Positions 5,476-32,000 of a stretch of 64,000 bases of DNA are shown piece after piece (position 1 is the stretch's first letter; each line of letters starts with the position of its first letter). The stretch is taken from the NCBI RefSeq assembly GCF_002571385.2, contig NW_019217795.1, forward strand, positions 1,324,715 to 1,388,714, written 5' to 3'. Made by a program: the position numbers and the translations under genes. Below the pieces are notes generated by a model. It did not search any database. It was not told the DNA's origin and saw only the letters and a program-made list of their open reading frames with translations. The DNA comes from Stylophora pistillata (lineage: Eukaryota).

Positions 5476-6483
5476 TCACTGCGAAGCGGACAGGGCAGTA
5501 ACAGTGAAGGCCTCACCAAGTTGAATTACCTCGTCCTTTCTTTTCCAGAAAGTTAAGACTTGCAGGAATTCTGCTCTAAACGCTCTATTCATGACGCCAT
5601 ATATGACGGGATTAATGGAACAACTGCCGAAGCCGAGATATATGTACAACATAAAAACCTCTCGTGGGATGGCGAGTTTGTGTGCTGAGAAAGAATCGAC
5701 CATGTCAATAATAGCTATGGGTCCCCAACAAAGAATGAAGCCCAGTACAGTTGCGAATAATGCTTTTGTTATTCTCACCTCTTCCACATTCAATCGAAGG
5801 GTCACCCCTTTTCTTGTATTGTTCATCTCCTCATTGTGATGTTTGATGGTTTTAAAAATCTTGTAATATGCGAAGGTGATGATTCCAATAGGAACAGAGA
5901 TGTAGATAACATCCAAATACGCCATGTAGGCCATGTCCAGCTGCGGCGTATCAAAGTCCATAAAACAGATAACTTTACCGTAGTGCACGATAAATGTGGC
6001 CCATTGAGCCAACGATGAAAGCCCCGCACCAAAAGCAGCGAAAAGTGTTATGGCAACCACAGAAATACAGGTTGATTTGACTTTAAAACGCTGGCGATAA
6101 AGATTAGGTTTCACCACGCGAAAATATCGGTTGACAGCTGTTGCAGTCATAAGCAGCAAAGAAAATAGTGCACAGAAGAAACAAAAGAATCCTTGGAAAT
6201 GACAAACAGCACTGCTGAATGGCCACTGTCCTGTTACGAGAAGAACGACGGACATGGGCATACACAGGACTGCCATGAGAGCATCAGATATAGCCAGCGT
6301 CCCTACATAGATGTTTGGTATGGTGCGAAGTCGTTGGTTACGGTAGACAGCCCAGCAGACCAGCATGTTACCAGTGAAGGCCAGAATGTTGATACACATC
6401 ATAAGAGCACTTTCGAAGACAACCAAACCAAGTGAGCGTTGTTGCAGTTCTTCGGAAAGAATTGTTTGGCCTTCATTCGCCAT
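5476..6483 (-). CDS. Rhodopsin-class (class A) GPCR, melatonin-receptor-like, copy 2 (intronless, 335 aa)
   Basis: Single ORF MANEGQTILSEELQQR...ALSASQ with 7 hydrophobic segments and motifs TGN, LAISD, AVNRY, CWGP, NPVIY. NRY in place of DRY is typical of melatonin-type receptors; the ligand cannot be inferred. Confidence 0.93.
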   Translation of the reverse strand: MANEGQTILSEELQQRSLGLVVFESALMMCINILAFTGNMLVCWAVYRNQRLRTIPNIYVGTLAISDALMAVLCMPMSVVLLVTGQWPFSSAVCHFQGFFCFFCALFSLLLMTATAVNRYFRVVKPNLYRQRFKVKSTCISVVAITLFAAFGAGLSSLAQWATFIVHYGKVICFMDFDTPQLDMAYMAYLDVIYISVPIGIITFAYYKIFKTIKHHNEEMNNTRKGVTLRLNVEEVRITKALFATVLGFILCWGPIAIIDMVDSFSAHKLAIPREVFMLYIYLGFGSCSINPVIYGVMNRAFRAEFLQVLTFWKRKDEVIQLGEAFTVTALSASQ

Positions 6484-8956
6484 TGAGAACGGAGTCAACA
6501 AAATTTGTCTCAGTCAACGAAGTAACCTGAATCTTTTAGCACCGAAAACCACGTTCAATGTGCAATCAGTTGACGTAATTTAGTTTCTCTTTAAGATATT
6601 TGGGTATACAGTACTGATGGCCAATTGCGATGTAACGCGGGCAATTCCTTAAGTGGTGTGTTATCTGTCCTTGTAAGGAAATGAAAATAAGACTATACTG
6701 ATTACAATTTTGCATGATTTCAGTTTGCATGTTATTTTTTTCCTACAAGCAGCTGCACATCTATTGAAAAAAAGAAACGTAATTCGATTGTTGATTAACA
6801 AACAGGTGATCACTTTTAAAGCAAGTGGGGACTTATGGAAACTGATAATAACTGAGTATACATTGCAAAGGCCGGTTTTTTTTTCTTCTTTAATTTTAGG
6901 TAAGCAAACGGTTCATCACTGGGGCTTGATCTTTTAAATGAACCTCGAGGAAGTTCGTGTGCTTCAAATTAGCATTTTGTTTGTTCAAAGAAATACTCGG
7001 TAAGCGTGAAGTGGTTTCATGGAAACAATTCTTTTATGTATGAAAAGAAATGTCATGATTAACCCGACTTAGGCGTAAGATTAGCAAACAGCGAAGTGAT
7101 TCTACCGGAAGAATGAATTGTATTTGTACACTGAAAACTGAACGCGTGGAAATGCTGTTTCAGTATTTTTCGACGAAACCACTTTGGAATTTACGAAAAG
7201 CGAAATTTTCATAAGAAATAATTTTTACAACAAAAACAAAAACAGGGACTCTTATTACATTATTTTATAACATAATACTTTGAACAATTGAACAACTAAA
7301 TCATGTAAATCAACTCTAATAACTTTGATAGATGGGAGAAAAAGTTAGTTTTGTGAGTCGCATTTGAGTAAAACGAGTTGGGTTAAAAACGATTTTTTTT
7401 TAAATTAAATTTTCTTCTTTTTTTCTTGATTTTTTTCTTACAGCTACCAATCGATATTGGTGTCATCCCTGGACAAAATTTCTTAAAAGAATCATACATT
7501 ATGCAATGACAAAGCTTAAATTTGTTTTCAATCTCTTTCGGCACATGAGGCGCTTTCGAAATTGCAGGTTCTAGCAACATACATGATGAGTGTCACGTAT
7601 TACTTACCACTCTAAGAGGAGAATTGATCAATCTCAGTGGTTTTATTTCTGTTAGGCGGGACGAAGGTTTTCTTGAGCACTTTTTGTAGACGTGCCTTAT
7701 CACTCTTGTAAATAACTAAAGCATAATTATTCTTTCTCTTCAAAGAGCATGGCCCAAATATCAAATAAATCATCAAAAAAATCTCATGATATCCGATCGA
7801 GTTTGTATGTACTTTCGACTGTTTTTCACTCCTTAGATAGCGCCGATCAGCGGCAGTTCGGCCCTTGTGCGCTACCTTTACCTTCTAAGCGTAAACGTAG
7901 ATTTTTAGATCTGACGTTATACAAAGAAGTCTTCACCCCAATCAATTTGTACATAACATTGACAGCTGTCATAAGGTCCAAATTAAAATTTGGACAATTT
8001 GTCGGTCTCCATTATTCATTTTCAAGGCAGCCAGAGTAGATACTTTTTTCCTTCCACACAATCTCTTAATGAACCATGGATATTAAAGGATTATTAAAAT
8101 ATAAGTGAGGTTTTCCTCTTTCTGATTGACCTTATAATTCTTGCGTTGACTATACTCGGCCGGCTCGATGGGTCGCTTCAATTTTTACTCAGTTATCCTC
8201 CTAGGTATCGTGGTTTTAATTTTTTTATGCTTCATGACACATTTTCTATCTACCAAAGAGAAGCAAAAGAGAAACTTCACGCATCATTTCGTGGTACACG
8301 TAATTATAATTACAGCATCGGAAGTTCTTCAGAACTTTAATATGCTGTTAACAGTGAACAATGACGGTCGTTAGAGAAGATTTGAAACTACCAGCTCAAC
8401 AAATTTCGTGCATTTTGCAATTAACTGCTTTAAACGCAATTAATCATAACAGATGAAGGCGAGAACGCATGGCTCACACCTTATGTTACATTTTACAGGT
8501 GTATCATCGTTAGCCTAGTGATTACAACTTTGAGTTACTTTAATTTATGTTTTGCTTGTTTGCTCACGGTTTGTTTTCTCTTTTGGTTTTGACTGACGAA
8601 TGTTCAGCGTGATTAAGTCATAAAGGCGAGTAGCCCACAACAAGAGGTGTTTATTGCCGGTTTCTTCAGCACTAATGGGCTGTATACATTTCAACACTCC
8701 TCCATTCCATTAGCAGGCAGTGCAGGGGTGATTTTGACGAGTGAGAGCCTAGCTTTTCTTGGTGAAAGATTGAGCGGCCAAATTTGATTTTTCAGCTGCG
8801 GAAAGCAGGGGAGAGAAAGAAATTTGTAACAAAAGGAAGGAAAGGAGAGGGGAGAGGGGGGCGGGGAATAAAAATCGTTGTTGTTTGGACTTTTTAAATT
8901 GATTATACATTTCATGTTGAACGTTTTTTACTCATTGCTACTCCTTCACTCTCCAG

Positions 8957-15000: not shown

Positions 15001-16519
15001 CAAGGTCGGGGATTTGCTGTTATTTATTACAATTCCACCTCCTGGTTTGGCGTAAACTCTGAACCAAACCTAATATTCGCAACGCTCTAGAAATGAACAC
15101 TGAATTTTCTGTGCACGAATGGAGGAAATCAAAGTAACTTGCCCATAAAATTGAATATCAACTAAAGTTAAAGGATTTGTTTCAGCTGTATCTAAAAAGT
15201 ATTGATTATTCTATCGAGAAGAAATGGGTTTGCATTCAACGAAAACCGAATGTACACCCCAAATATTTGCGCGACAGTTTTAAAGGTTTCAAAACTTTTA
15301 ATGTTTATTTAACTGTAATTTTTTCGTGTTCGGCTCCTAGAGCCTCACAAGAAATTGGATGAAAATGGACACCATTGCCTTCTTTCGGATTAAATTCCCG
15401 AAAAGATTCGAGCCCTGCTACAATGTTTGTGACAACGAAGTTCAATTACCTTGTTCATTTAATTAATAGTTTTCATTGAAGATGATAGACCTCCATCACC
15501 ACTCATGAAGGAGTGTTGACAAGTCTATCACGATGTACACCGCTAACAGGTACATCTGATGACATCTGCGTCCAGAAAAACGTTATCGTACCTCTCCGGA
15601 AACGACCATTAATTAATGATTAGCGGCCATTAGTGTCGAGTGTGGCATGATAATGAACACGCTATGGCTATTAATGCATTATGCAGTGGAATTACAAGGT
15701 GTCTTGCTCTCGTGGATGAGGGCAGCATTTGAAGTGACAATGATTTATTGTTCCTGCAGAGTGGAGTCTAGATTGCGTGTAGTCGTGGTCTCATTTGCGG
15801 TTTACCCAAGGAAAGTAGTGTTTTTACGAGGTGATCGGTAAAACAGGATAATGCAAGGGGCGGCAGTAGACAAACATTCTTACTGACAAGTCTCAAGTTC
15901 TTATCTCAATTTACAGTGGGTTTTAGATTGTTCTAGATGACGTCATGAGGTTAAGTGCGTCCTAACGACAGTCAGTGTTTGGCAAAAAACAGGTCTGCTC
16001 CGAACGAATTGTGATCGCTCACTTGGGGAATTTGTTTTGCATTGAGTTGCCTAAAGCCATCTCAAGAAGGAAACGATCACTCGAGGTTTCACCAAAGATT
16101 GCGTGTATTTTGAGATTATTCGCCTTCTCGCCCCCTTAAATCGTCGACTCGTCTAAGCTCGAATCATAAAGCCGCCTAAAGCCTTTAATCATTCGATCAA
16201 TTTGTCTCGAGAATAGCTTTGAAATTCTTGCGTATATGCCACATAAGATGGATATGTCGCTATCTAGGTTCAGAGGAGACCGCGAGCGGTTTGTGTAGGA
16301 TGCAAAAACTGCTCTTTCTTGTCTTCATCGCACGCATCCCATCAGTGCATCACGCGACGGTAGCAGAAGCTATCTGGGGTTGAATCAGATTTCTACAAGT
16401 CACATGCCATCGCTCTTCACAAGTGCGCGCGTTCTGTTGATTATCACAAGACATAACAGCCTTGACTCGCGGTGATCTTACGTAGGGTATTCAGTGACCA
16501 CTGTGGCGCCCGTTTGGCC

Positions 16520-17586
16520 ATGTCAGTCTCGGTCGCACTTCCATTCTATTCGGCATCTCTGGGCCTTCTCATAGCGTTCGCCATCCTCCGGTTTCTATTC
16601 TGTACCTTGGTGTTTCGCAAGCTGGTCGTTAAACTGTTCATCAAGTTTGCAGGATGCGAAATCAGCCAAGAAGTGTACGGCAATAGTTTGTTTGGATGGG
16701 AGATGTACAAAGCCGTGACGGCCGCTTTGTTGACAGATCTGCAGAAAAAAGCTGAGCTCGGTGCAGAAGCACCAAATCCTTGTGTCGTGTCGGCCGACGG
16801 CCAGTTGCGTTCACATCTGTTGGACTTCGCCAAGAAGAGCAGGCCGCTGGTGGTGAATTTCGGCAGCTGCACTTGCCCTTTCTTCATGGACCGCCTCAAA
16901 GACTTCAGCGAGATCATGGCGGATTTTAGTGATATAGCTGATTTCGTCGTCATTTACATCTCCGAAGCGCATCCTTCAGATGGTTGGGCTTTCAAGGTAA
17001 TCTTAACAGCCTAAATTTACTTCTGAGATACCCAATTTGTCGTATGATCCTAGCAGAAATGTTACTTTCAAATCGGAGGATGGATTACCAACTCAAACTG
17101 GCTTTAAACGTCTCTATGTTATCCTCCTTCGCGCTTAGGTCCGTAGTATTATGGTGTATGTATTCATACGTATTCAGTCGAATTCGAAGAACCATGAAAT
17201 TAGACAACTATACAGTTTGTCGTCTGTATAGGAAGCCCTGTTTGAATATCTAATTAATGAAGGAATGAGCTCGGACTTTGCTCTAACTCGTTTACGCTTT
17301 TTACATCACGATTTAGACCAACTTCCACGTGAAACGGCATCGTACTCTGGAGGAAAGGGTCCAAGCCGCTCGGTTGTTTCAGGACGCGTCTAAGCTACAG
17401 GCTCCAGTGTTGGTGGATTGTGTAGAAAACGAAGCGAACCGAGCGTATGGCGCCCTGCCAATCCGACTTTGTATTATCTTAAATGGAAGAGTAGAGTTCG
17501 TTGGCGGGATGGGTCCGACATTTTACAAAACACAGGAGGTCAGAAGTTGGTTGACGACTTGGAGGGAAAGTGAATTGAACGTGTAA
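16520..17586 (+). CDS. DIO: Iodothyronine deiodinase-like protein A, Cys-type (exons 16520-16996, 17317-17586; 248 aa)
   Basis: N-terminal TM helix; RPLVVNFGSCTCPFF active-site motif (TGC at 16874-16876); YISEAHPSDGW; phase-0 GT-AG intron; exon 2 TNFHVKRHRTLEER...YGALPIRL...GGMGPTFY. Confidence 0.93.
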
Positions 17587-20500
17587 CTGTAGTGCTATAC
17601 ACGTGCACAAGTATTCAAAGTAGCACAGCGAGATACAAGGTGGAACACTAAAAAATGAAAGTTCAAGCACGTGTACTGATCGCGTTCTTTCGCCATCGCT
17701 GTATCACTTACATTCAAGAATATCATGAACAACATTATAAGGATTTTAATCAAGGGGCTAGTGTTGACCACACGACAAACGCTAGCCGTCAAGCCTAAAG
17801 CTACATATCTCTGTATGCTTGTAGGTTGTCATATTCAGTAGACCTGAAAACCTAAGTGCTGCCGGAGAGGCGTATATGGAAGATAAATTTGACACGAAAT
17901 TTCTTACTTGCTTCCCATCCGAAGACAATATTTAATAGCCATACATGCTTATATTTACTCTCGTTTCGTCGTACTAAGAGTTATTGGAAATTTGTATTCA
18001 AAACAGAAATTCTCTAGGATAAAAGGTAAACAGTTCCTTTTAGTCTCAGTTGTGAGTTTCGAGGTGTATATTACCAATAGTGATCCCTTCAAAAGCAATG
18101 TCACCAATTTCGTGGTATTTGCCTGAAGGTTAAAAGGACGAAAATACGATACAACTATTTTAATCTTGCCCTGTGCGGTCATAGCATTTGTGTTGTATAA
18201 CAAAACAAAGAACAAGGTGAGAAAAATAAATAACAGCTAAAAACTTGAATCTCGCTGCGAATTTTAATCCCCTAACCTCGTTTGGCGATCATTTCTACTT
18301 CACCTCAGCATATACAAACATGAAATCTAATTACGCGATTTTCTATCCATCAAAAACCGCAGGAAGTTGGTTAATGTCACTAGACGTCAAGTTGCATTTT
18401 TGTGCGTGAAGGTTGTTTATCGCAAATCCGGAAAAAGGTACACGGTAGCTTGACATTTTCAACTTGACCGGAAGATGAAAGTCCGTGGCATCAATCCTAG
18501 ATGATGAAATATAACATATTGCCAAGGAAATACCTATCAAACTGAACGCTATGAAATGATCCAAACAAAGCTCTTTGTTCAATTACAAGTTGTTTTCTAG
18601 TCGAATGACCCTGGAGGGTGTGCAAGCATTAAAACGTTTGCACTTCTGCAAAGTCCGCATCACGCGATGATTTTCTTATTGGACGTTAACGCTAAATATC
18701 CAAACACATGTGATTTGAGCTGACTGAGGAGAACTCTCGTATTATGCGCGATAATCTCTGATTGTCGAGACCCTATTTGGAAAGAAATGTTTACGAAATT
18801 TATCGCGTGACTATCGGGTCTGGTAAACAGCCTTTGTTTTTAGCGCGTGTGCCCGAGATCATTTAGGAAGTACCTCCTCGTCCATTGATTTACGATCTAA
18901 CGATCGATTGGCTAAGTGCTAATGAATGAGAACCCCACTTGAGAAGATTCGTTTTTCACTAAGTGATTTCTCTCGCTTGAATCCATCTGCGGTACAATCG
19001 TTGGCGACGACTGATTGGTTTCGCTAATCTACACTGTCCTTTATCAGGTTTTTTAGCTGTAGGGCTTCAAGCGTGGTACTGTTTGCTGAAAACTTTTTCA
19101 GTGTATTTCTTTTTTGGCAGGGAAATCAGTCGTTTAGTGGTAATCAGTGTTCTAATTTTAATCAAATGCATCATATTGTGACACATTTCAGCACTCACAG
19201 AGTAAAATGCTATTTGAAATCTGGTGAAATCACAGACTTCCGGTGTCGAAACGAATAAACATCATGAAATAAACAAATTAAGAAAAATACTATGTCACGG
19301 ATGAAAGAGATGGTGGCGAATCGAAAGGAAATTTGTTTTTCTTTTTTATGAAAGTGCAGAAACCAGTGTGAAGCTGATAAAGAGACTTTGAAACTTAAAA
19401 AATCGGCCAAGAATAATTCTAATTTCAGTTCATTCATTATCTGACATTTGAGTTAACCTCGCGTGATAGACACACAACGAATGCGTGAATTTGAACACTA
19501 CGTCATATTTGTCCAATTTCCTCACGAATATAGCTTTTCCTTTTATATCTGGCCGCTTGGATCACGTCTGAAACCCAAAAATATTTTACTTGGACTGGTC
19601 TTTATTAGAGAATTACCTTTTAAAACCTTCCGGTATTTTTCAAAGTATAATTATCGATATTTTCTTATTGTCTAGAAGTTGCTGGGCGGATAGGTCTGAA
19701 ACCGCCGAATTATAATTCTTGTGGATGGACTTTTAAAGAATACTTGAAATCAAAAGCGTTAGCATGGCCACTGGTGATTAAGTTGACATGAATCTCTTCA
19801 ATGCGAAAGAACTGATAAGACGTAAATTAAAATTAACAATTGCAAATTGGCACCTCGCTTCCGAGAAGTTCACTGATTCAAAAAATGGCGTTTACTTTAG
19901 GTCACGTACACCATTTTGTCTATTATCTCAGACGATTTAAAGAGATGATAATTTTTTTTTGCAGAGAACATTCCTTGCAAATTTATATCAGCTTTCGTAG
20001 GAAATGTCTTAAGAAAAAGTTGTAAACATCTTTGGATGTCAAAGGGTAACTACATATTTCTGCACATACACCTCCCTGGAATAGAACGAAACTTTGTTTC
20101 AGACAGGGACCTTCCTTTAAAACAGAACCTTAAAAGCACTCCCAAGGACTGTAGAATTACTCAGGTAGAGTTTCAAATTATTTTTAGACCCGCGTTAAAG
20201 GATTGACTTCATTAGTCATCAAAGAAACACTAATTACTTTTCACCGACGGTTCTTCGAGAAAGGGCAGAAGGGGCTAACCAAAACCATTATCTCTTCTCT
20301 CCAGCTCACGTGGTTTCTCAAATTGCGTGTTTCAAAGATTACTTTGAAAACAGAAAACCACCATCAAACCATGAATAGAAGCTATCTTCTGTCCATTTAC
20401 AAAAAGTATCAAACCAAGGCTTCACCTCTAAAAAAGGTAGCATTTCATTCCTCTGTTAAGACTTCCAGATGTTAATTTCACAGTTCGATCGTTTTAATTT

Positions 20501-23431
20501 TTTAAAGACTTAATTTGGTAATGACCACCACAAACACAGCTCGTTTCCAAAAATAGACTGTTTACTGAAAAGAACGCGATAACAGCTTCAATAGTTTTTC
20601 CAAAAGAGGGAAATATAGCAAGCATCTGCTCTGAGGTCGAATATGGAAGAAAAATGCCCTCAGCACATAACATTTAAACAGCAGGAGGTACAGTTATGGT
20701 TATTGCTTTGTTGCGCCGCACAGAACAAAAAAAAAAAGTGTATGGCCAGTGCAAATGTTGCTACGTCCAAAGGTGTTGGATATCGAGGAGTTGAAACACT
20801 TGAAGCAAGCTATCTACGTACTCTGGCACTCGACAAGGAAGATTCTCTCTCACCAGTGCCTCTCGCTTTAGCGCATAAACTAAGTCGCAGAGAAAAAAAA
20901 TCTAAAAAATTTGAGTTACTGAAAAAGCGCAATTTTTAATTTAGAATATGTCGAAAATTTAATTTAGCTAGTCACAAACTGAAAAAGGAGTTATTTTGTT
21001 ATGTACACAACTCCCGTCTCATAGAAATATGAAAATAAACATTTCACGGTAAGAAAAGTAAACACGGATTTGCTTTATAAACTGTAAATTCTTTCATAAG
21101 AACTAGTTTTCAACCCTTTTCAAGACCAGATACACTGCTACAGAAATTAGTTAAGGCCCGAAAATGTTGCAGTCAACCGCAGTTGATGAATTTTTTTCAG
21201 CTTCTGATGACTATAAATAAATTGTTTTAACTTTTGCGATAGCTGTATGAGTTGTTCAAACATCGCGTGATTTCATTGTATCTTTCATCGATTCTAGAAA
21301 GTTCAACTAAAACAGAATTATTTCACCTAGTACTTCTCATACCGGGAAAAACAAAACATAAATAACCGGTGAAATTGCCCTTACTTTGCAAAGTTTGATT
21401 CGAAAAGTAGAACTTCTCATGCAACTGAACAAATTATTCAATGGGAATACTTCGATCGCGTGACCTCAATCTTCGACAATTTCGCGTGTTCGCTGAATGA
21501 CGTAATGCAGAACATGAATGGGCACACTGCGTGTAAGCTCAATACAAGGGGTCCGTCAAAACAAACTTCCCACAGAGCTTAAGCGACATAGGAAATGAAC
21601 TTAACTGCGATCTTCCTTCAGCAGATTGTAATCTCGCACGCACAGCGACCTAAGTCAGATAAACAAGGAAAATTAAAAGGGAACATTTCTCGATTGTGGT
21701 AAATATTGATCTACGCTTGTTTGCATTTGAGTGAGAAACGTCCGACTTTCAGGCACCGAACAGCTAACACATAGTTTGCAGTGACATCAACCCGCAGTTT
21801 CAATCTGCGACACTTGCCATCAAGTTTATTTGTATTGAAAATAGGTTTAGGGACGCCAAAATGTTCTCTGTTACTGATTAAGTCATTTTGTAGGAGGGAA
21901 AAATCACTCCAAATCGATTTCCCCTTGTACCACTTCACTTTGTTTTGTTTTAGGCCTATCGCCGTCATCGTTTCATTGTTTATCACTCATTTTCAACGAT
22001 TATTAACACGTAATTTGTGTCAAAAGGAACATAAACCTCATTCACCGCAAGTCACGATACTGACGAGATCAAGTCTTTTCGCACATTAGAAACTATGAAA
22101 TGGGCGCAGATTCCAACAAGTATTTTCCCACTAAGACAGAACGACGAAATTGAAACTGGGACCGAAAACCTGCCACAGGTTCGTTTGCGTAGAGCGCGCA
22201 TGATTGACAGTCCTTGTGCAAATAAAATCTGGAAGATCTAGCAAGAGCACTAGCTAGAATTACGTAATTCAAAAATTCTCTGCCACTGGCGATTGTGGAA
22301 GGTTTGCAAACCGATGCGAAGTAATGGAGACGCTTTTAATGCACACTTCTAGTTCACTCTTAAAAGTATTCATCGAACACGACCGAGTCGAGCTGCTGCT
22401 AAAAGTGTTAATTTGATCGATTGATAGACACTAAGCCTCTACAAAAAAATTACAAACATTTAAACAGTTACCATTGCCTTCCGGCTCTTAGTCTCAAATA
22501 CAATGTTATTAATTAAGTGAGTTGTGTGAGGTATTTACTGCAACGCTGCGATACGCGTGCCACAAGAGTTGGCAAAAACGGTCCGAAACGTGTCTAGGAA
22601 CTGAATAAAATAATCAGCGGATTGTGCAGATTCTTTAGCCAAACCAAAGGATTACAGATGGAGAAAACAAGCTCAATAAGATTTTAGATATTTGAGGTGA
22701 ACAACAGGTTGACTTAACCCTGGGCTGCCCAAGGGAGGCGTGTAAAATCAACATGAGCTGCAGTTGTAAATGCACGCAATCTATCTTAATCACTTGGGGG
22801 TGACAGTCCAATCAGAGTTCACCTTAAAGTGCGATAAAAATTCCTTTCAGAGAAAAATTGGAACGAAGCGGGTAGGAATGTACCGCTTCGCTGGCTCAAA
22901 CTGGGCAATCGTGTTGAAATCGAGAGGTGTAAAGTACGTCAGAGGACTCGTACACTTGGAATAGACTATTTAACACGCGATTTATTTACATTCGTGTTTT
23001 CGCACGATGAACGACTGGTCAAGCAACTACAAAGACTTCCTTTCATCAATTATTACACTGAGCTTAGAATTAAAGTTGTCGCGACCGTTTAAGAAGCTAT
23101 TTCTACAGATCAATGACTCAACTGCTTGTAAGTAAGTTAAAGACAAATAGTGCAGTTACTCGGTCTACCACGACATCAAAACACGTCAACAATATCTCTT
23201 TGTTAGTTGCTACCTCAAATCTACCTTAAAAATTAGTATTTCTTTGAACATCGTTCTTGGTCATTGTTCGATACTTTTTGAGCAAGGATTCCCAGATCTG
23301 TGCGTTGCATGAATTGTTATAAACTTCCGGTTTTAGCCATTTATCCTAATTGTCTTTCCTTGCGTGGCTTGTTCTATGGAGGCGCATCATTTGAATGTTT
23401 TGTGTTCCTCGACTCGGTTGTTTCTAATGTT

Positions 23432-24376
23432 TTACGCCCGATGACGGCCAGTTTTCATAAGTTCAACCTTGTATTCCTTTAACCACTTTGCCACATTTTG
23501 TGGGTCGTAAAATGTCGGTCCAGTTAAACCAGCAAATTTCACTTTTTGATTCTTTATCACGTAAAGTCTGATAGGAAGCCCGGCGTATGCATTGTTAGCT
23601 TCGTTACCCATCGTGTCTATCATTATGGGACAGCTAAAGTGAACAGAGTCCTGCATAAGCTTTGCTGCTCGGCATCTATCCTCCAGGGTCTTGTGGGTAG
23701 AAATTTTGACGTTGTTCTAAGTATGAGATAGAAAGATTTAGTCAGTTGCTGTGGGTCTCTAAATCATTTTGCATAGGTTGGACTGTAACAATTACTCACA
23801 TTAGGAAACTTCTAAGGGGCGTGCACAGGTAAATTTTGCTCATGTAGAAACTGTAAGGAAATAGTTTTTTTAAAAGACCTTGTATCTCACCTCAAAAGCC
23901 CAACCGTCACTTGGATGGGCTTCCTCGACGTATATAGTAAGGAAATCAGCAACATCACTGAATTCCTGTACCACGCTTAGAAATTCGCCCACCCTAGCTC
24001 TAAAAACTGGGCAGGTCCAGCTGCAGAAGTTGACAACCAGTGGACGGCTCCCCTTGCAGAAGCTGAGCAGTCGACTATGCGACTCTCCGTCTAAGGAAGC
24101 AAGGAGAGGGTCCGGTGCCGTGTGATCCTTTCTTACAGTTTTCAGAAGCTCGAGATGGATGGAATTGCGCACAGATTTCAACATCTGCCAACTAAACAGT
24201 GAACTCCAGTACATTTCCTTTGGCAGCGGTACAACCGATGTCAAGTCCATCAGTTTAACCACGATCCATCTTGTTCTGGGCAAAATTCTGAGAACGCGTA
24301 GGAATGAAAATGCCACCAAGAGAAGCAGTGTTGCTGCGCAGTGTACAAACGTGATACTGGTCATTTTCCGCGACAT
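23432..24376 (-). CDS. DIO: Iodothyronine deiodinase-like protein B, Cys-type (exons 24376-23891, 23716-23432; about 256 aa)
   Basis: RPLVVNFCSWTCPVF (TGC at 24013-24011); YVEEAHPSDGW; same phase-0 intron as paralogue A; exon 2 NNVKISTHKTLEDR...CPIMIDTMGN...YAGLPIRL...GPTFY. The start could be Met at 24376 or 24364. Confidence 0.92.
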
Positions 24377-27300
24377 TTTTTTTCCTCGTCGAAGCAGCAG
24401 AGCCAGCGAGTCAAAGCTCGTGTGTATCTCCACTCGAACACTTTCCGTGGGTTTGAGGACCGCAATGACAGCGTATTTATACAGCACCGAAGGAATGTCA
24501 GTAATTTTGTTTCTCTTGAAAACACTCATTCGACAAATCTGACCTCGCCGATGAACTCTCGCGTGACGGTTACGCGGTTTTTTTTCGTGCTGGCAGGTGC
24601 GGCGTGCAGCTCTGGAACCAATGAAACCCAAACAGACAGACTTGCGCAACTATGTAGGACAAATTTTGTCTCTTCTTATTCAAATAGCACATCTGTTGTC
24701 ACAATAAAAAAAGGTGTTCAGCTATTTGCGAACAATTGGCGCCGACAATTTCTCTGCGTGCGTAATGTGGTATGATTTATCGTTAGCGCTATGTATGCCG
24801 TCCGATTCTCTTGCGAAAATTGACCCACATTTATTCGTTGCGTCTCACGGAATAGTGATATTTCGTCTAAGCCTCTTTAGTTCAAGCACTACTTTCTTGT
24901 TATTTAAAGTTGTGCATGTGTTCCGTTCAAGTTTCAGTTGTCATCGCTGAAGAGTGAAGAGTTCTTGAAAAAGTTGTTAATCTGACGTTCCCGATTAAGT
25001 CGTGTTACTGATTTTCGCAAGGCCTAGCCACGAAAGCACACGATGCTTTGGTGCTTTGGGACCATGTTGTTAATCGTTTAAACAGATTTAAAACATAAGT
25101 GTTCAAGGACGCCAAAAATAGAGAAGTGCTAGACTTCTTTGCGGTGGTGTTTTTTCCACATATGTGCGTTGACGTATTTTTCGATCTTTTTTGCATGCCA
25201 CAGTATGTAGTCTGTTAAAAATAGCTATTGGCTTGCGCTTGTTTCTCACTGTGCTCTATATTTGGACTTTTTGATGGAATAAAAGCTCTCCTTTAGTGAT
25301 AAACCCATGTGCTTTGTTAAAAGAATGCACGAAGCCGAGTGAGAACATGAACAAGAGAACAACAACTGAAATCAAAGAGACCCTGCTTCGAGGAAGAAAA
25401 AAACAAAAAGGATCACTAGTACGAGAGGAAAATTCGTGCGTCTAGCAACTGTAGTCAACATCTAGAAAAATGAATTACGTTTAAAAGGGAAGTTTATGAC
25501 CAATAAAACTATTTATACAAACAGTGTTCATATTGAAAATAACATGTAATATCTACAGACATTTCTGATGGATTGTAAACAGCGATGAAGCTTGCGTTTA
25601 GAGCCTATTTTGGAGCCTATTGCTCAAAATATTCGTGTCCTATTTGAAGTTGTTCTCAAATGTTGCACATTCTCTGAAAGTTTTTGTTACGGCCTATCGA
25701 CTTTTAAGCATGTATTGTTCAAAACTAATAAGTGTAGGAGTTGGAGTATTGGTTGATAATGAAGTAGCTGTAAAAAGGAAAATTGAAGGTTCGGATACCA
25801 CATCCTCTTAAACTCTGAACTTTAAGAAACCTTTTCTGCATTTAAGATGATGGTTGGTTATAAAATAAACTGCCTTGATTCTTGCTATTTGTGAAACTCC
25901 AGAAATTCGGAGAGCGTACGGATTTTACACCAGAGCATATTTTCAAACAATGAACCTCAGCTCTAGTGATTTCCAAAAATCCAAGTCGCCTGAGGAAGTG
26001 TTTTGATGCAGCGTTCGCGTGACATCTGCTGCTTAACCCGGCTGTGTGTTCGTGCTGAAAACACNCTTATCTTGCACGCAATGATGACGGTGCAATCAAC
26101 AAACCCTTGATTCTTTTCACTCCTTTATTATTGTTTGACTCCGATCATTTGAAAATGTGTAATATTGGATTAAAACGCGACAAGATGAGACACAAGTTGA
26201 GAAAAAAAATCGTGATAACAACGAGCTAGACATTGATATGGGTTAATACCTCTCCACAGTTAACAGACATAACAATGCTATTTCGTCATCGCCTCTCAGT
26301 GACGGTGACCTACGTTGGTTCAAGAGGAGAGTCAAAGTTCCTGCATTCCTCATAAATAATACTTTATCGTTACCTTGGAAAATGCAAGGAATACGAAAGC
26401 ATGCTTTTGATGTCACCAACGTCATTTTTTTAGTCATTTGATTCAAATTAACATGATTCACTGATTTCTTAGATGCGTATATATAAATAAATGGTGTAAT
26501 GTTTATATTGTAGATTTTTAATACTTGTACAGTTTTAGGTTAATTATTGTTGTAATGCGCTTTTGACCACCTGGTATGTTAAAAGGCGCACTATAAACCA
26601 ATAAATTTTTATTAATATTATTCACTGCAGAATTCTGAAAGATTCGTCTGAGGCTTCCAAAAAAGGAAGATTTTTGTAGCCTTCCCGAGAGGCAGATTCT
26701 TCATAGAACAAAAAAGAGTCTTCTTTTACAGTCGAAAGAACATGTTTCTGCCGGGAAATACTAGTACATCTCGTCTAGTTTGTAACTTGTTTGTCGTAAC
26801 AAAGTTGCAACCCAAGTGCTCAATGAACCCTGTCTCTAAGCTGAACATGACCGGTCTTTCGAGTGAGACACCACTTAAGACACCTCTCTCCATTTTACAA
26901 CTGCAACAAGACTTATGATCTTGACTTTTTCTGCCATTTTGCTTGCTAAGTATACAATGATACATCGGATAGGAATTTCTTAATGAAAATACATCACGTC
27001 ATTTAATTAGTTCCCTACGTACGAAGTGATGGAAGGTGGTTTAAATAGTCCACTTAGATCTTAGTGCCTCTTGACTTTTAATTACCTTCAAACGCGTTGT
27101 AGAACTTACGCGATCCCGATAGCGCGCGCTCTCTTTGCAGAAACGTTTGTAAAAGGACACAAGCAGCTCTTTCTCATAGGTTACACGATTTATGAGGCTT
27201 CTTCAATTACACTCAAATGCATGTACCACATACGCTTCGAGGCCAAATAAAATATTGTAATTTGTACTTGTATAGTAATTTATTCATAGCTTCCCTTTGA

Positions 27301-27727
27301 GCAGATCAATGTTCCGACTTAGAACGTGACATTGAAACAGTACATTACCCACTATGCGTGGTCGTCACTAAGTGTTATATGAGGATCTGAGACCTGTAGT
27401 ATCAAAATAATAGTTACAATATGTATGTGTACTGTACAAAATTCTTCTTGTTTTACGACATATTCACACCAGACTTGAAGATTCATATATGCAACATCTC
27501 TTCCTTCAATTTTCTCTTTTGTTGAAACTCCTACAGAATATTGTCTTGGCGGTTTGATTCCTCCAGACAATGATCCTTCAAGATACTACTTAATTATCAG
27601 ACTGAAGTGGTCTGCGGTCAAAGTTAACATACACGCAGATTCAAATAATCCACGTGCGTCTCGCGTGCTAGAGCAGTCATTTGTCTAAAGTCAAACGTGG
27701 GTCCATCTTGTTTTCCCGCGAATTTAT

Positions 27728-29063
27728 CTACGCTCTGTGCCTAGTGGTTTTCGGATGAATTCTGATGCTCTGAAGCCGTTGTCTCACTTCCGTAAGATTG
27801 TAAAATGTGGGTCCCATCCCCCCTGCGTATTGTATTTGGTTCCTTTGAATGATGTAGAGTCTGATTGGCATACCAGCGTAAGCCTTGTTTGCATCATTCG
27901 CCATGGTGTCAACCACAACTGGACAGTTAAATTTCACTGAGTCCAACATCAACTTTGCAGCGCTACTCCTCTCTTCCTGAGTTTGGTGTTGGGGTATCGT
28001 GATGTTATTCTGCAAGACAAACCACATCATTGTGAGGACGATAGTCTCCCAGTGATCTTATATGGACAATGATGTTTGCCCTTAAGGTTTCTTTTCCTTT
28101 AGAGTTAAGTCGCTGTCTTAATTCTTTGAAAAAATTTGCATTAAGTGACGATTTAGAACGCAATGAAAATTTTGCCCCAAAGGTAATCAGTAGAGTTAAG
28201 ACTGCATTCGCTTTTTTTCCCGAACATTCTACGAATGAAAGGCAATTGTTTTGTTTTTGGGATAAATGTGTCTATCAGTGTGATCGTTACAAATAACATT
28301 GATTTGTATTACTAGTATTTCTTTATCTCGGTCTTTCTTATTAAAATATTTGTGAAACAATGAATCATCGACTCCTTAAAACTGACTAAATCCTTCAGTC
28401 AACAGAACGTAACCGGTATCAGCCAATCTTTCCTATGAAATACAGATGTGGCTTCTCGTTAAATTCATGTACTTGATGGCTTGACCTTGAAAGTAATAAT
28501 TTGAACTTGGCATTGCTGCTCACTTACATCAAAATCTCCTAATCTTTGGTATCTGATAACAGTCTATGGCATGCGCTCACCTCCAATTTCCAACCATTGG
28601 TCGGATGGGCTTCTTCAATGTATATCGTCAAGAAGTCGGCCACGTCACTGAATTCTTGCACAATGGAGAGGAACTCGTTCACCCTGTTCCTGAAAACAGG
28701 GCAGGTCCAACTGCCAAAGTTAACGACAAGAGGACGGTTACCTCTACAAAATTCTAAGAGACGGTAACGTGATTTTCCGTCTACGGAAATGAGCTGGGAG
28801 TCTGGAGCGATTTTTCCCCTAGAAGCTGTCTTCTGCAGTTCGAGTAGCATTGACGAGCGTTTGGAACTAAACATGGACCATGTGAATAGTGAATCCCAGT
28901 AGTCTTCCCTGGGCATTTGGATTGTCGAAATCCTGTTTACAAACTCTGAGATGATCCACTGTGCACAAGGAACGAGTTTTAATAGCCGCAACACTATAAA
29001 CGTTAGTAACAGCATTAAAGTCCCGAGGTAGTAGCAGAAAAACGTACACGTGCTGAAGATCAT
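27728..29063 (-). CDS. DIO: Iodothyronine deiodinase-like protein C, Cys-type (exons 29063-28581, 28009-27728; 254 aa)
   Basis: RPLVVNFGSWTCPVF (TGC at 28703-28701); YIEEAHPTNGW; same phase-0 intron; exon 2 NNITIPQHQTQEER...CPVVVDTMAN...YAGMPIRL...GGMGPTFY. Confidence 0.93.
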
Positions 29064-32000
29064 CTTAACGCATAAGAACTGCAGTGTTAACTGCACCGTG
29101 TCTGAGATTCAACTGGACCGAGAGCTTTACGAATTGCTTTTCACAGCGGGAGAATTTAAAGAATGTCTTTTATTGCGACCTCTTACGTGATTTTCACATT
29201 TTTTTTTAGTCACAGCTCGAGCGTGCAATGCGGAAAATAATTATTAGGAGCGGGAAGGGTATATCTTTAGCGAAGTCTTTGCTTCTTTAGCTATATTTGG
29301 CTCGGCTTACCTCTGGTATTTAGCGGTAACGCTTTTACAAACGAACTAAACACAACTGTTCGCAGCAGTAGCACTCGGCGTGCGCTAGACGCAGTGTTGA
29401 ATTGCAGGCCTGCACTCTCTTGTTAAGTATTTTTCAATGACCCCCATTTGTTCTCGAAGTTATGATGAGCACGCAACAAATTAGAATTTCTTTTTACCAT
29501 GACTAAAGATTTCTTATTCCATAAATCACTGTTAGAGGACAAAAATTTGATACGAAGCTGGCAAAAAATAATTACTCTCATCTGCATTTCAATGCGAGGG
29601 CACTTAAGAGCGTCTTGAAATGAAATAGCTAGAGGAATCAAAACTGAACTATCGATATTTCACGCTGCGATATAGTTTGCCAATAGTCCCACAATAGATA
29701 GTTTGCCGCCAAGTTTTGCGTGATTTTGAAGTTGTAAACAAATGTTATTTTCATCACGCGATGAATTGCACAAGACTCACGCGAAAGGAAGCGAAATTTT
29801 ACAGATACTCCGAAATGGTGCTCTTGGCTGTTTATTTTACAATTGCTCGAGGTTTTTGACATAAAGCGCAAATATTAAACACTTGCGTAACTGAACATAA
29901 TTGACTATTTGTGTGTCTTTTCCGTTGCAAAATTTCCTCACGGCATGACGCTCTTTTAAAGTAATCAAGAGTTTGCCCCAGTGCACATGTTGGCATGTTA
30001 GAAGCTGTCGCTACGCTCATTATGGTACGCTTTTAGACGGCAAATTGCGAAAACCCTGTTAAAGGCTTAATGAGTTTCAAAAATAGATAACCATCCTGAG
30101 ACATGCCGCGAGTCATAAATTAACTGCTCTTGGGATGCCCAAATGCAATAATGGATGAACCGCAAACTGATCGCCTAGCTCAGTTCTATAAGAAAAACCT
30201 CACCATCAGAAAAAATAACTCGTACGATAAATGATGACAGAGACTGTTTTTGTAAATTTGGCTTGAAGGTAAATTTCTGCAAGGCACGTTCAACACAGTG
30301 GAAGCAAGTTACTTGGGAGCAAGCGGCCTGTCTTATTTCCTGCTTTTCTGAAGCAGTGATAGCGGCGGAAGGAAGTTCCCATTTTGGCCGCGGCGTTGAA
30401 GCTGGGCGAAAACGCTTTTCTTGCACGTACACTTGCACTTCTCGTCGAAACAAATGGCTACGTGAAGCGGGGAAAGACTTTACTTAAATCATTTTTAAAT
30501 CATGTTTCAATTTTTAAGGTTAGAACACAAGAAAAAGAACACCATATCCGTTTTGATTTCCTCATTCAGTTTGTGCATAATTTGGTGAGCGGAAAAAGGA
30601 GAACGTGCTCTTACCAAGTCGTCTAGACGTAATTATTCAACCTTTAACGCCCTTTCGAGTGGCTCACATACGATGTTTGAAATTAAATTAACGAGAAAAG
30701 AACTACTCGGTGAATGAAAGGCAAAGAAGCCAATGTCAGTAACTGTACCTTTACGAAATCTTTATCTAGTTGTTACGTCTCGGATGGTCTCCATAATATG
30801 ACTGATACATGCTTTTTGCATACGACACGCGAACAGACCTTTTGTTCTATAATCAGCGTGCATAGTTCACTAACTTTGTCACCATCAGTTACCCTGAAGT
30901 TTTTACCACATGTTTCACTCAGTGAAGCTAAAGACTGCGAGAAAGTTCGTCAAACGCGACAAAATTAGATGACTTCGATCAAAATATATTTTGGACGCGG
31001 CTATGAGCTCGTTAAATCATTGACAATTAGTGAAAGTAGGGTCTCGAAAAGGTCTCTTGAGTGTGTTTTCTTCTTCCCCGCGGTTTTCTTTTATACGTCA
31101 GTGCTCCCATAGAAGTACGTGATTTATTGCTTTTACGAAATAAAAGGCAATTACTTAAAGGCTTTAATATGGCGACAATTCAAGAGCTCTTAAGCAGAAA
31201 GCCAGAGAGCCCAAAACACCGAATAATTGGGTGTGTAATCGTTTTTGCGAAGTATTTTGACGAATGCGGACTTTAAACCCTCGCAGAAATTATTTAAAGT
31301 GATTTAATACATGGTAATATAGACACCGCGAGTGTCACTTGCCTTTTGGCACGGGCCAAGGCAAATTTTTAAGGTAAACCACTACAGTGCCACAACTCAC
31401 ACGTCTTTTATAGTGAACTTCGTCAGCACGTAATGACGTAATCTCTAGATTTTTAAGTTTTTCTTCGAGCTGTTTAATAGAACTGAGTACTAATGAAACT
31501 GCGTACCCCGTGCAAAAGTTTATGGTAAGTAAGAAAAATACAGCACAATTCCTTCTTCAGTTCCTTTTATAACATTTTTTTTTTTTAATTAAAGTGAAAA
31601 ACGTTTTTTTTCCTCAATTTAAGAGTGCTCTTGACAATTCCGCCCTTAAATTCTCTGTTGCGGCTTTAGTAATTTTAATAATAAAAATATAGTGGCTGCC
31701 TGTATTATTCCATTCATTAGCTCTTTGCTAAGTTTGCGTCAGTTTTGCACATTCTGTTGCATAGGTACTGCAAAGACTGCTACCTCTATTATTTCAAATT
31801 TGTACAAATTAGAAGGGTTTGGGTGTGTCAAGTTAAACGTGGAAGGGACTAAAAATAACGCAAAGACACTTTCAAAAATTAACTCAATGGGACGGGTGGC
31901 AGATGTTCAATTAGACACGCTTGGTTAGGATCAGGCCATTTGACTTCTGATTAGGGGAGGTACGAAGATGCGTTGTCTCCTCCCATTTCTTAAGAGTCAA

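Follow-up and report, generated by a model that had tools for sequence, protein, structure and literature searches.

A 64,000-nucleotide stretch of the Stylophora pistillata genome (contig NW_019217795.1, positions 1,324,715 to 1,388,714; hereafter the window) carries three genes whose products are membrane-anchored, cysteine (Cys)-type members of the iodothyronine deiodinase family; they belong to an anthozoan clade and are not selenodeiodinases. All three have Ile at the position of Glu259 in mouse Dio3. Comparison across the family leads us to propose, tentatively and at somewhat less than even confidence, that Glu259 is a partner of selenium more than a grip on the thyronine. The acid would tend to drop at each switch from selenocysteine (Sec) to Cys, as a repeated compensation that took place at least twice in anthozoans, and the pre-bilaterian substrate would most likely have been a deaminated iodophenolic acid. 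The genes themselves are not new, as the S. pistillata RefSeq annotation already names all three deiodinase-like, and the proteins are a variant of the known Cys-type deiodinase.

Motifs, fold and catalytic residue of the coral proteins

An earlier note on this DNA had remarked that the three paralogues replace the charged residues thought to hold the amino-acid side chain of the thyronine. The observation was confirmed, and the interpretation built on it is partly supported. PIRL, where vertebrates have (P/F)ERL, was read directly in all three genes, with the Ile codon ATC at 17461-17463 (+) in gene 1, 23572-23570 (-) in gene 2 and 27865-27863 (-) in gene 3. The loops read GGMGP, GLTGP and GGMGP, respectively, and the Y-x-x-E-A-H motif and the downstream His are present as described. 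Alignment showed that these positions are equivalent to Glu259 (Ile) and Arg275 (Met, Thr and Met) of mouse Dio3. In phmmer alignments of gene 3 exon 2 with mouse Dio3 (4TR3, expectation value (E) 1.5e-14) and Dio2 (9H48), Ile falls on the Glu of FER and Met on the Arg or Lys of GG(R/K)GP. The alignment of gene 3 exon 1 to the same two proteins runs through the catalytic motif, and the three paralogues align to one another without gaps across the region from PIRL to the loop.

The substrate roles that the earlier note gave for Glu259 and Arg275 are in print (PMC12025243, PMC11592359). Arg275 is described as binding the substrate carboxyl and Glu259 as a possible aid to amino-group recognition, with His202 as proposed partner of the substrate phenol (PMC12025243). 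Other roles reported for Glu259 are a salt bridge with Arg176 that builds the pocket floor (PMC7506546) and proton transfer, in a summary of Schweizer 2014 (PMC10895443). The Arg that follows the Glu (Arg260) is given as the floor of the carboxylate site in PMC11592359, which lists Ala, Ser or Pro at position 275 of Dio1.

The earlier note had overlooked the catalytic Cys in all three genes and the retention of Arg260. The catalytic codon is TGC, not TGA, within SCTCP, SWTCP and SWTCP of genes 1, 2 and 3 (16874-16876 (+), 24013-24011 (-) and 28703-28701 (-)), and Rfam gave no match, and hence no selenocysteine insertion sequence (SECIS) hit, at E up to 1 within window positions 16000-30000. 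Ser167, Thr169, Tyr197, Glu200, His202, Trp207 and His219 are conserved in all three proteins, as in vertebrate Dio1, Dio2 and Dio3; the catalytic relay (Ser167, Thr169, Tyr197, Glu200 and His219) is thus retained as had been claimed, although the nucleophile is Cys. Arg176 is also kept, Arg260 is common to the vertebrate enzymes and Pro258 is shared with Dio1. The coral proteins differ from the vertebrate ones by Cys for Sec, Ile for Glu259, Thr for Asp278 and the lack of Arg or Lys at 274 or 275. Where the proposed amino-acid site has its Glu259-Arg260 pair, all three therefore read Ile-Arg, and the marks of the Dio2 and Dio3 subtypes (Phe258, Pro-Pro after Sec, Lys or Arg275) are replaced by Pro258, Phe or Val at 172, and Met or Thr at 275. 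As for the resolving Cys, gene 1 has only the proximal one (Cys168), whereas genes 2 and 3 have only the distal one, with Trp at 168. In gene 2 (24022-24025 region), and in the majority of gene 2 and gene 3 orthologues, an additional Cys (CSWTC) stands in place of the vertebrate Gly, four residues ahead of the catalytic Cys, and might act as an alternative resolving Cys; gene 3 has Gly.

The family assignment was supported by PF00837 matches on all six exon translations (77-133 bits, against a curated cut-off of 27). P0007 (214 bits), a public sequence that matches gene 3 exactly from residue 17 onward, was folded as a stand-in for gene 3 only. Its AlphaFold model (predicted local distance difference test (pLDDT) 96) had 4TR3 and 9H48 as best matches (E ~1e-19, target template modelling (TM) scores 0.84 and 0.83, 42-43% identity), and the coral proteins have in common with the vertebrate enzymes a thioredoxin fold with the deiodinase insertion and an N-terminal hydrophobic anchor. 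The core is also common to ResA-type redoxins and peroxiredoxins, and the loss of Sec together with several variable pocket positions could signal loss of the ancestral activity, in which case the proteins would be membrane thiol redoxins or peroxidases reusing a peroxiredoxin-like core. We consider this improbable, as the deiodinase-specific insertion (Tyr197, Glu200, His202, Trp207, His219) is intact in all three and the model matches redoxins at E ~1e-6 only, against ~1e-19 for Dio3 and Dio2.

Position 259 and the Sec/Cys state across the family

Deiodinase homologues were compared in a sample of the best 150 of 6,151 representatives at 50% identity (3,126 of them at E up to 1e-10), with counts covering the rows that reach each site. 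Both position 259 and the catalytic site are covered by 74 rows, of which 33 have Trp and 32 Cys at the catalytic site; the 9 with other residues were set aside. Trp there stands for TGA read-through; among bacterial relatives of one Trp-bearing protein, 77 of 80 loci had TGA, all with Glu, and 3 fell outside the pattern. Position 259 was acidic in 31 of the 33 Sec-type rows versus 8 of the 32 Cys-type rows. It was the column most strongly associated with the Sec/Cys state, followed by 168 and 172, which both flank the catalytic residue. Fisher's test on 259 gave p 6e-9, a value that ignores kinship. Pairwise contrasts on the best tree, which comprised 78 rows and was built without the tested columns, gave 8.5 same, 0 opposite and 4.5 with no difference (p 0.004). 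Over 200 of 1,000 bootstrap trees the figures were 7.4, 0.1 and 5.6 (median p 0.016), and the highest net among 153 control columns was 4.4.

The same tendency was seen at the codon level in Acidobacteriota, where position 259 was acidic in 33 of 38 TGA forms versus none of 3 Cys forms. This set consisted of 43 loci from the phylum of genome G001 as given by seed-locus titles, with three unpublished genomes excluded and one frameshifted locus uncounted. Of the five TGA forms without the acid, four are also missing Arg260 and the loop. Glu259 is thus conserved in bacteria as well, which are not known to have a thyroid hormone. Deiodinase homologues were present in 52 of 401 Acidobacteriota genomes searched, most with one in-frame TGA (L082-L111, L192-L206).

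The other half of the earlier claim, the change at Arg275, turned out to be ordinary variation. Arg or Lys was found at 275 in 38 of 115 aligned representatives, whereas basic residues filled position 260 in nearly all of 119 rows (114 Arg, 3 Lys). According to the supplement of PMC8699336, Halocynthia roretzi has PERT and GGIGP, chicken Dio1 GGVGP and zebrafish Dio1 GGIGP, and the Halocynthia enzyme is reported to deiodinate thyroxine (T4) and reverse triiodothyronine (rT3) with a high Michaelis constant (Km) (PMC8143656); the supplement sequence, the sole one retrieved for the species, is assumed to be the cloned enzyme. Position 275 is therefore variable among T4 deiodinases, an outcome that the earlier note had itself named as grounds for refutation. 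Contrasts of 275 with the Sec/Cys state over the bootstrap trees gave 2.2 same and 2.6 opposite, and with no such association Arg275 was rejected as a substrate marker. Judging from the aligned sequences, Met or Thr at 275 is uninformative, uncharged residues being the usual state outside vertebrate Dio2 and Dio3.

The claim holds up for Glu259, which the human, chicken, zebrafish, lamprey Dio2 and Halocynthia sequences compared keep throughout (11 of 11; PMC8699336 supplement), but its loss in the coral genes is a single inherited trait and not three changes. A lamprey Dio3-like Sec protein (XP_032820886.1) lacks both charges, with Leu at 259 and Ser at 275, and offers a vertebrate test case. 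The coral clade was represented by 38 distinct full rows with at least 52% identity to a window protein, many of them near-copies from related corals. All 38 have Cys, Arg260 and Arg or Lys at 176, and 36 have Ile259; the residue at 275 varies freely among uncharged ones (Met, Thr, Ile, Ala, Pro, Val) and is never basic. The window genes form a single branch (support 100/93) with stony coral and anemone proteins, so that the state seen in all three counts as one event; three independent changes to Ile were rejected. Members come from Stylophora, Pocillopora, Orbicella, Montipora, Oculina, Desmophyllum, Exaiptasia and Nematostella and have the Cys and PIRL, with Asn or Thr instead of Ile in anemone members. 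Nematostella deiodinase genes are reported as Cys forms only (PMC3473315). No functional or pocket analysis of these anthozoan proteins was found in the literature searched.

A second anthozoan branch (97/97) groups P0061, a protein with PERL and a catalytic-site Trp, with Nematostella and Orbicella Cys forms that have PIRL or PTRL. The P0061 cluster (P0284, P0285, P0291) includes an Oculina protein whose model begins just past the catalytic site. With Trp taken as TGA, a codon assignment inferred from the protein, the cluster is probably a Sec-type deiodinase of stony corals. A single origin of all anthozoan Cys forms without P0061 was rejected by the approximately unbiased (AU) test (p-AU 0.009), for a grouping chosen after the first tree had been viewed. 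Taken together with the repeated-compensation reading, this suggests that the change from Sec and Glu to Cys and a non-acidic residue occurred at least twice in anthozoans.

Several points weigh against Glu259 as a selenium partner, the late choice of that grouping among them. The bootstrap was not fully settled, and restriction to strongly supported branches left only 4 independent pairs (1.6 same, 0 opposite), a number with which significance is out of reach. The lamprey protein described above is of the Sec type and yet has Leu at 259. The replacements are varied (Ile, Thr, Asn, Met, Ala, Ser), which would fit relaxed constraint equally well, and the published substrate contacts rest on docking, superposition or simulation and not on a co-crystal. 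The correlation could equally come from a substrate shift common to the Cys forms, and so does not single out tuning of the thiolate. Finally, the 8 Cys-type rows that retain the acid include the Branchiostoma floridae form P0134 (XP_035687791.1), which, unlike the coral proteins, carries Asp259 and Lys275; it does not group with the coral clade in trees whose deep branches lack resolution. We take P0134 to be the characterised amphioxus enzyme considered below; attempts at confirming this found nothing. No prior mention of the motif change or of a link between Sec and Glu259 was found in the literature searched, which left most subscription journals outside.

Gene structure, transcripts and genomic environment

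The three genes occupy window positions 16520-29063, beyond both ends of the range 17440..27900 given in the earlier note. Each has two exons, and the spliced products of 248 (gene 1), 307 (gene 2) and 254 (gene 3) amino acids share 43-55% pairwise identity. They are 100% identical to the RefSeq models XP_022801112.1, XP_022801093.1 and XP_022801102.1, respectively. Gene 1 lies on the forward strand: exon 1 (16520..16996), matched by PF00837, encodes the N-terminal membrane anchor, SCTCP and YISEAH, and exon 2 (17317..17586) encodes the KRH His, PIRL (with Arg260 at 17464-17466), GGMGP (Met at 17509-17511) and the stop. Genes 2 and 3 are on the reverse strand. In gene 2, exon 1 (23891..24529) encodes SWTCP and YVEEAH, with a second Met at 24376 that is the start used by most orthologues, and exon 2 (23432..23716) encodes the STH His, PIRL, GLTGP (Thr at 23524-23522) and the stop. 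Exon 1 of gene 3 (28581..29063) encodes SWTCP and YIEEAH, and its exon 2 (27728..28009) the PQH His, PIRL, GGMGP (Met at 27817-27815) and the stop.

All three introns, including the joints 23716/23891 of gene 2 and 28009/28581 of gene 3, were found joined in raw-read (2 runs) and contig (2 sets) RNA data, which ruled out an assembly or splicing artefact. Read depth in the raw-read runs was highest for gene 1. Among the differences between RNA and window that were listed, with 58 more beyond the listing, none falls on a motif codon. A minor alternative donor of gene 3 (28528/28009 (-), 3 reads in one run) retains 53 intron bases that include an in-frame stop, giving a truncated product.

A single-exon G protein-coupled receptor of the rhodopsin family (PF00001) is located at 5476-6513 (-), some 10 kb away from gene 1. 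Consecutive gene numbers are reported in Acropora tenuis for a DIO3-like gene and a DRD5-like receptor, whose transcripts increase jointly ahead of spawning (PMC12573721). Further along the window, an exon at 37742-38404 (-) resembles an opine dehydrogenase; the piece tested gave no Pfam match.

Putative chemistry, substrate and meaning for coral biology

From sequence comparison and from analogy with characterised enzymes, we give about an even chance to the three proteins being Cys-type dehalogenases in which loss of the Glu helps thiolate activation and whose substrate is an anionic deaminated iodophenol. The Cys thiolate would attack the ring halogen, as in vertebrate deiodinases, the Ser/Thr/Tyr/Glu/His relay would act as proton donor, and the oxidised enzyme would be resolved by another Cys, the proximal one in gene 1 and the distal one in the other two, as proposed for Dio2. 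Cys is described as ionised to a lesser degree than Sec and as a poorer nucleophile (PMC7144113); losing the adjacent carboxylate while keeping two Arg should therefore help the thiolate, and the loss at 259, together with that of Asp278, beside Arg176 and Arg260 would promote ionisation of the weaker nucleophile. Loss of Glu259 would also abolish the proposed amino-group contact. Since the Arg of the carboxylate floor and the phenol-binding His202 remain, an anionic deaminated halophenol would be expected rather than an uncharged one, the likeliest class being iodinated phenols or diphenyl ethers without an amino group, similar to triiodothyroacetic and tetraiodothyroacetic acids (TRIAC and TETRAC). 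A precedent is the amphioxus non-seleno deiodinase, which shares a natural catalytic Cys with the coral proteins and is reported to deiodinate TRIAC and TETRAC while leaving T4, triiodothyronine (T3) and rT3 untouched (Klootwijk et al. 2011, via PMC8143656). No other natural Cys deiodinase with a characterised activity was found in the literature examined.

That precedent bears on the substrate suggested in the earlier note, an uncharged or deaminated halo-aromatic such as bromophenols, brominated diphenyl ethers or bromopyrrole settlement cues, of which the deaminated part has a parallel there, whereas the uncharged and brominated parts are unsupported. A pocket remodelled for such brominated compounds would agree with the near fixation of Ile in the clade and the absence of a basic residue at 275, which make the pocket rim more hydrophobic. 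Bmp8, a bacterial Cys enzyme for which no paper was found in the literature searched, debrominates tetrabromopyrrole. Debromination of some highly brominated polybrominated diphenyl ethers (PBDEs) by fish has been attributed to deiodinases (PMC7144113), and one deiodinase is among the entries of a subtraction library from Acropora settlement (PMC3204972). However, the pocket cannot be called neutral, since Arg260 and Arg or Lys176 are kept in every clade row and two acids (Glu259, Asp278) are lost. Even selenolate reportedly gives less activation of C-Br than of C-I bonds, and Cys is a poorer nucleophile than Sec (PMC7144113). Cys forms of Acidobacteriota and other lineages also lose the Glu, so that reef chemistry is not required. 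We found nothing pointing to brominated substrates and regard them as rather improbable; the loss of Glu259 may owe more to an adjusted chemistry than to a new brominated substrate.

The proteins could also be ordinary low-affinity Dio1-like deiodinases still acting on T4, T3 or related iodinated amino acids, the changes merely widening the pocket. Pro258 and a residue other than Pro at 172 are found in Dio1, where they are described as making the site more open and binding weaker (PMC11592359), the high-Km Halocynthia enzyme acts on T4 and rT3 with a sequence uncharged at 275, and coral deiodinase transcripts, paralogue identity unassigned, track lunar phase and spawning. However, all characterised T4 enzymes compared keep Glu259, the amphioxus Cys form is inactive on T4 and T3 (PMC8143656), and the iodinated compounds of cnidarians are described as poorly characterised (PMC6851572). 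We judge this explanation unlikely.

Coral deiodinase transcripts are reported to go up ahead of spawning (PMC12573721) and to vary by lunar phase (PMC6851572). If the proposed reading of Glu259 is true, it would caution that a "DIO" annotation in corals does not by itself demonstrate the T4/T3 signalling that is assumed or suggested in spawning and lunar expression studies. The anthozoan copy with Sec and Glu beside Cys copies would provide natural pairs for testing the use of selenium and the pre-bilaterian substrate. If the link between Sec and Glu259 is causal, a single residue would account for the low activity that deiodinases show once Sec is replaced by Cys, and the question of why these enzymes use selenium would become testable by one double mutant.

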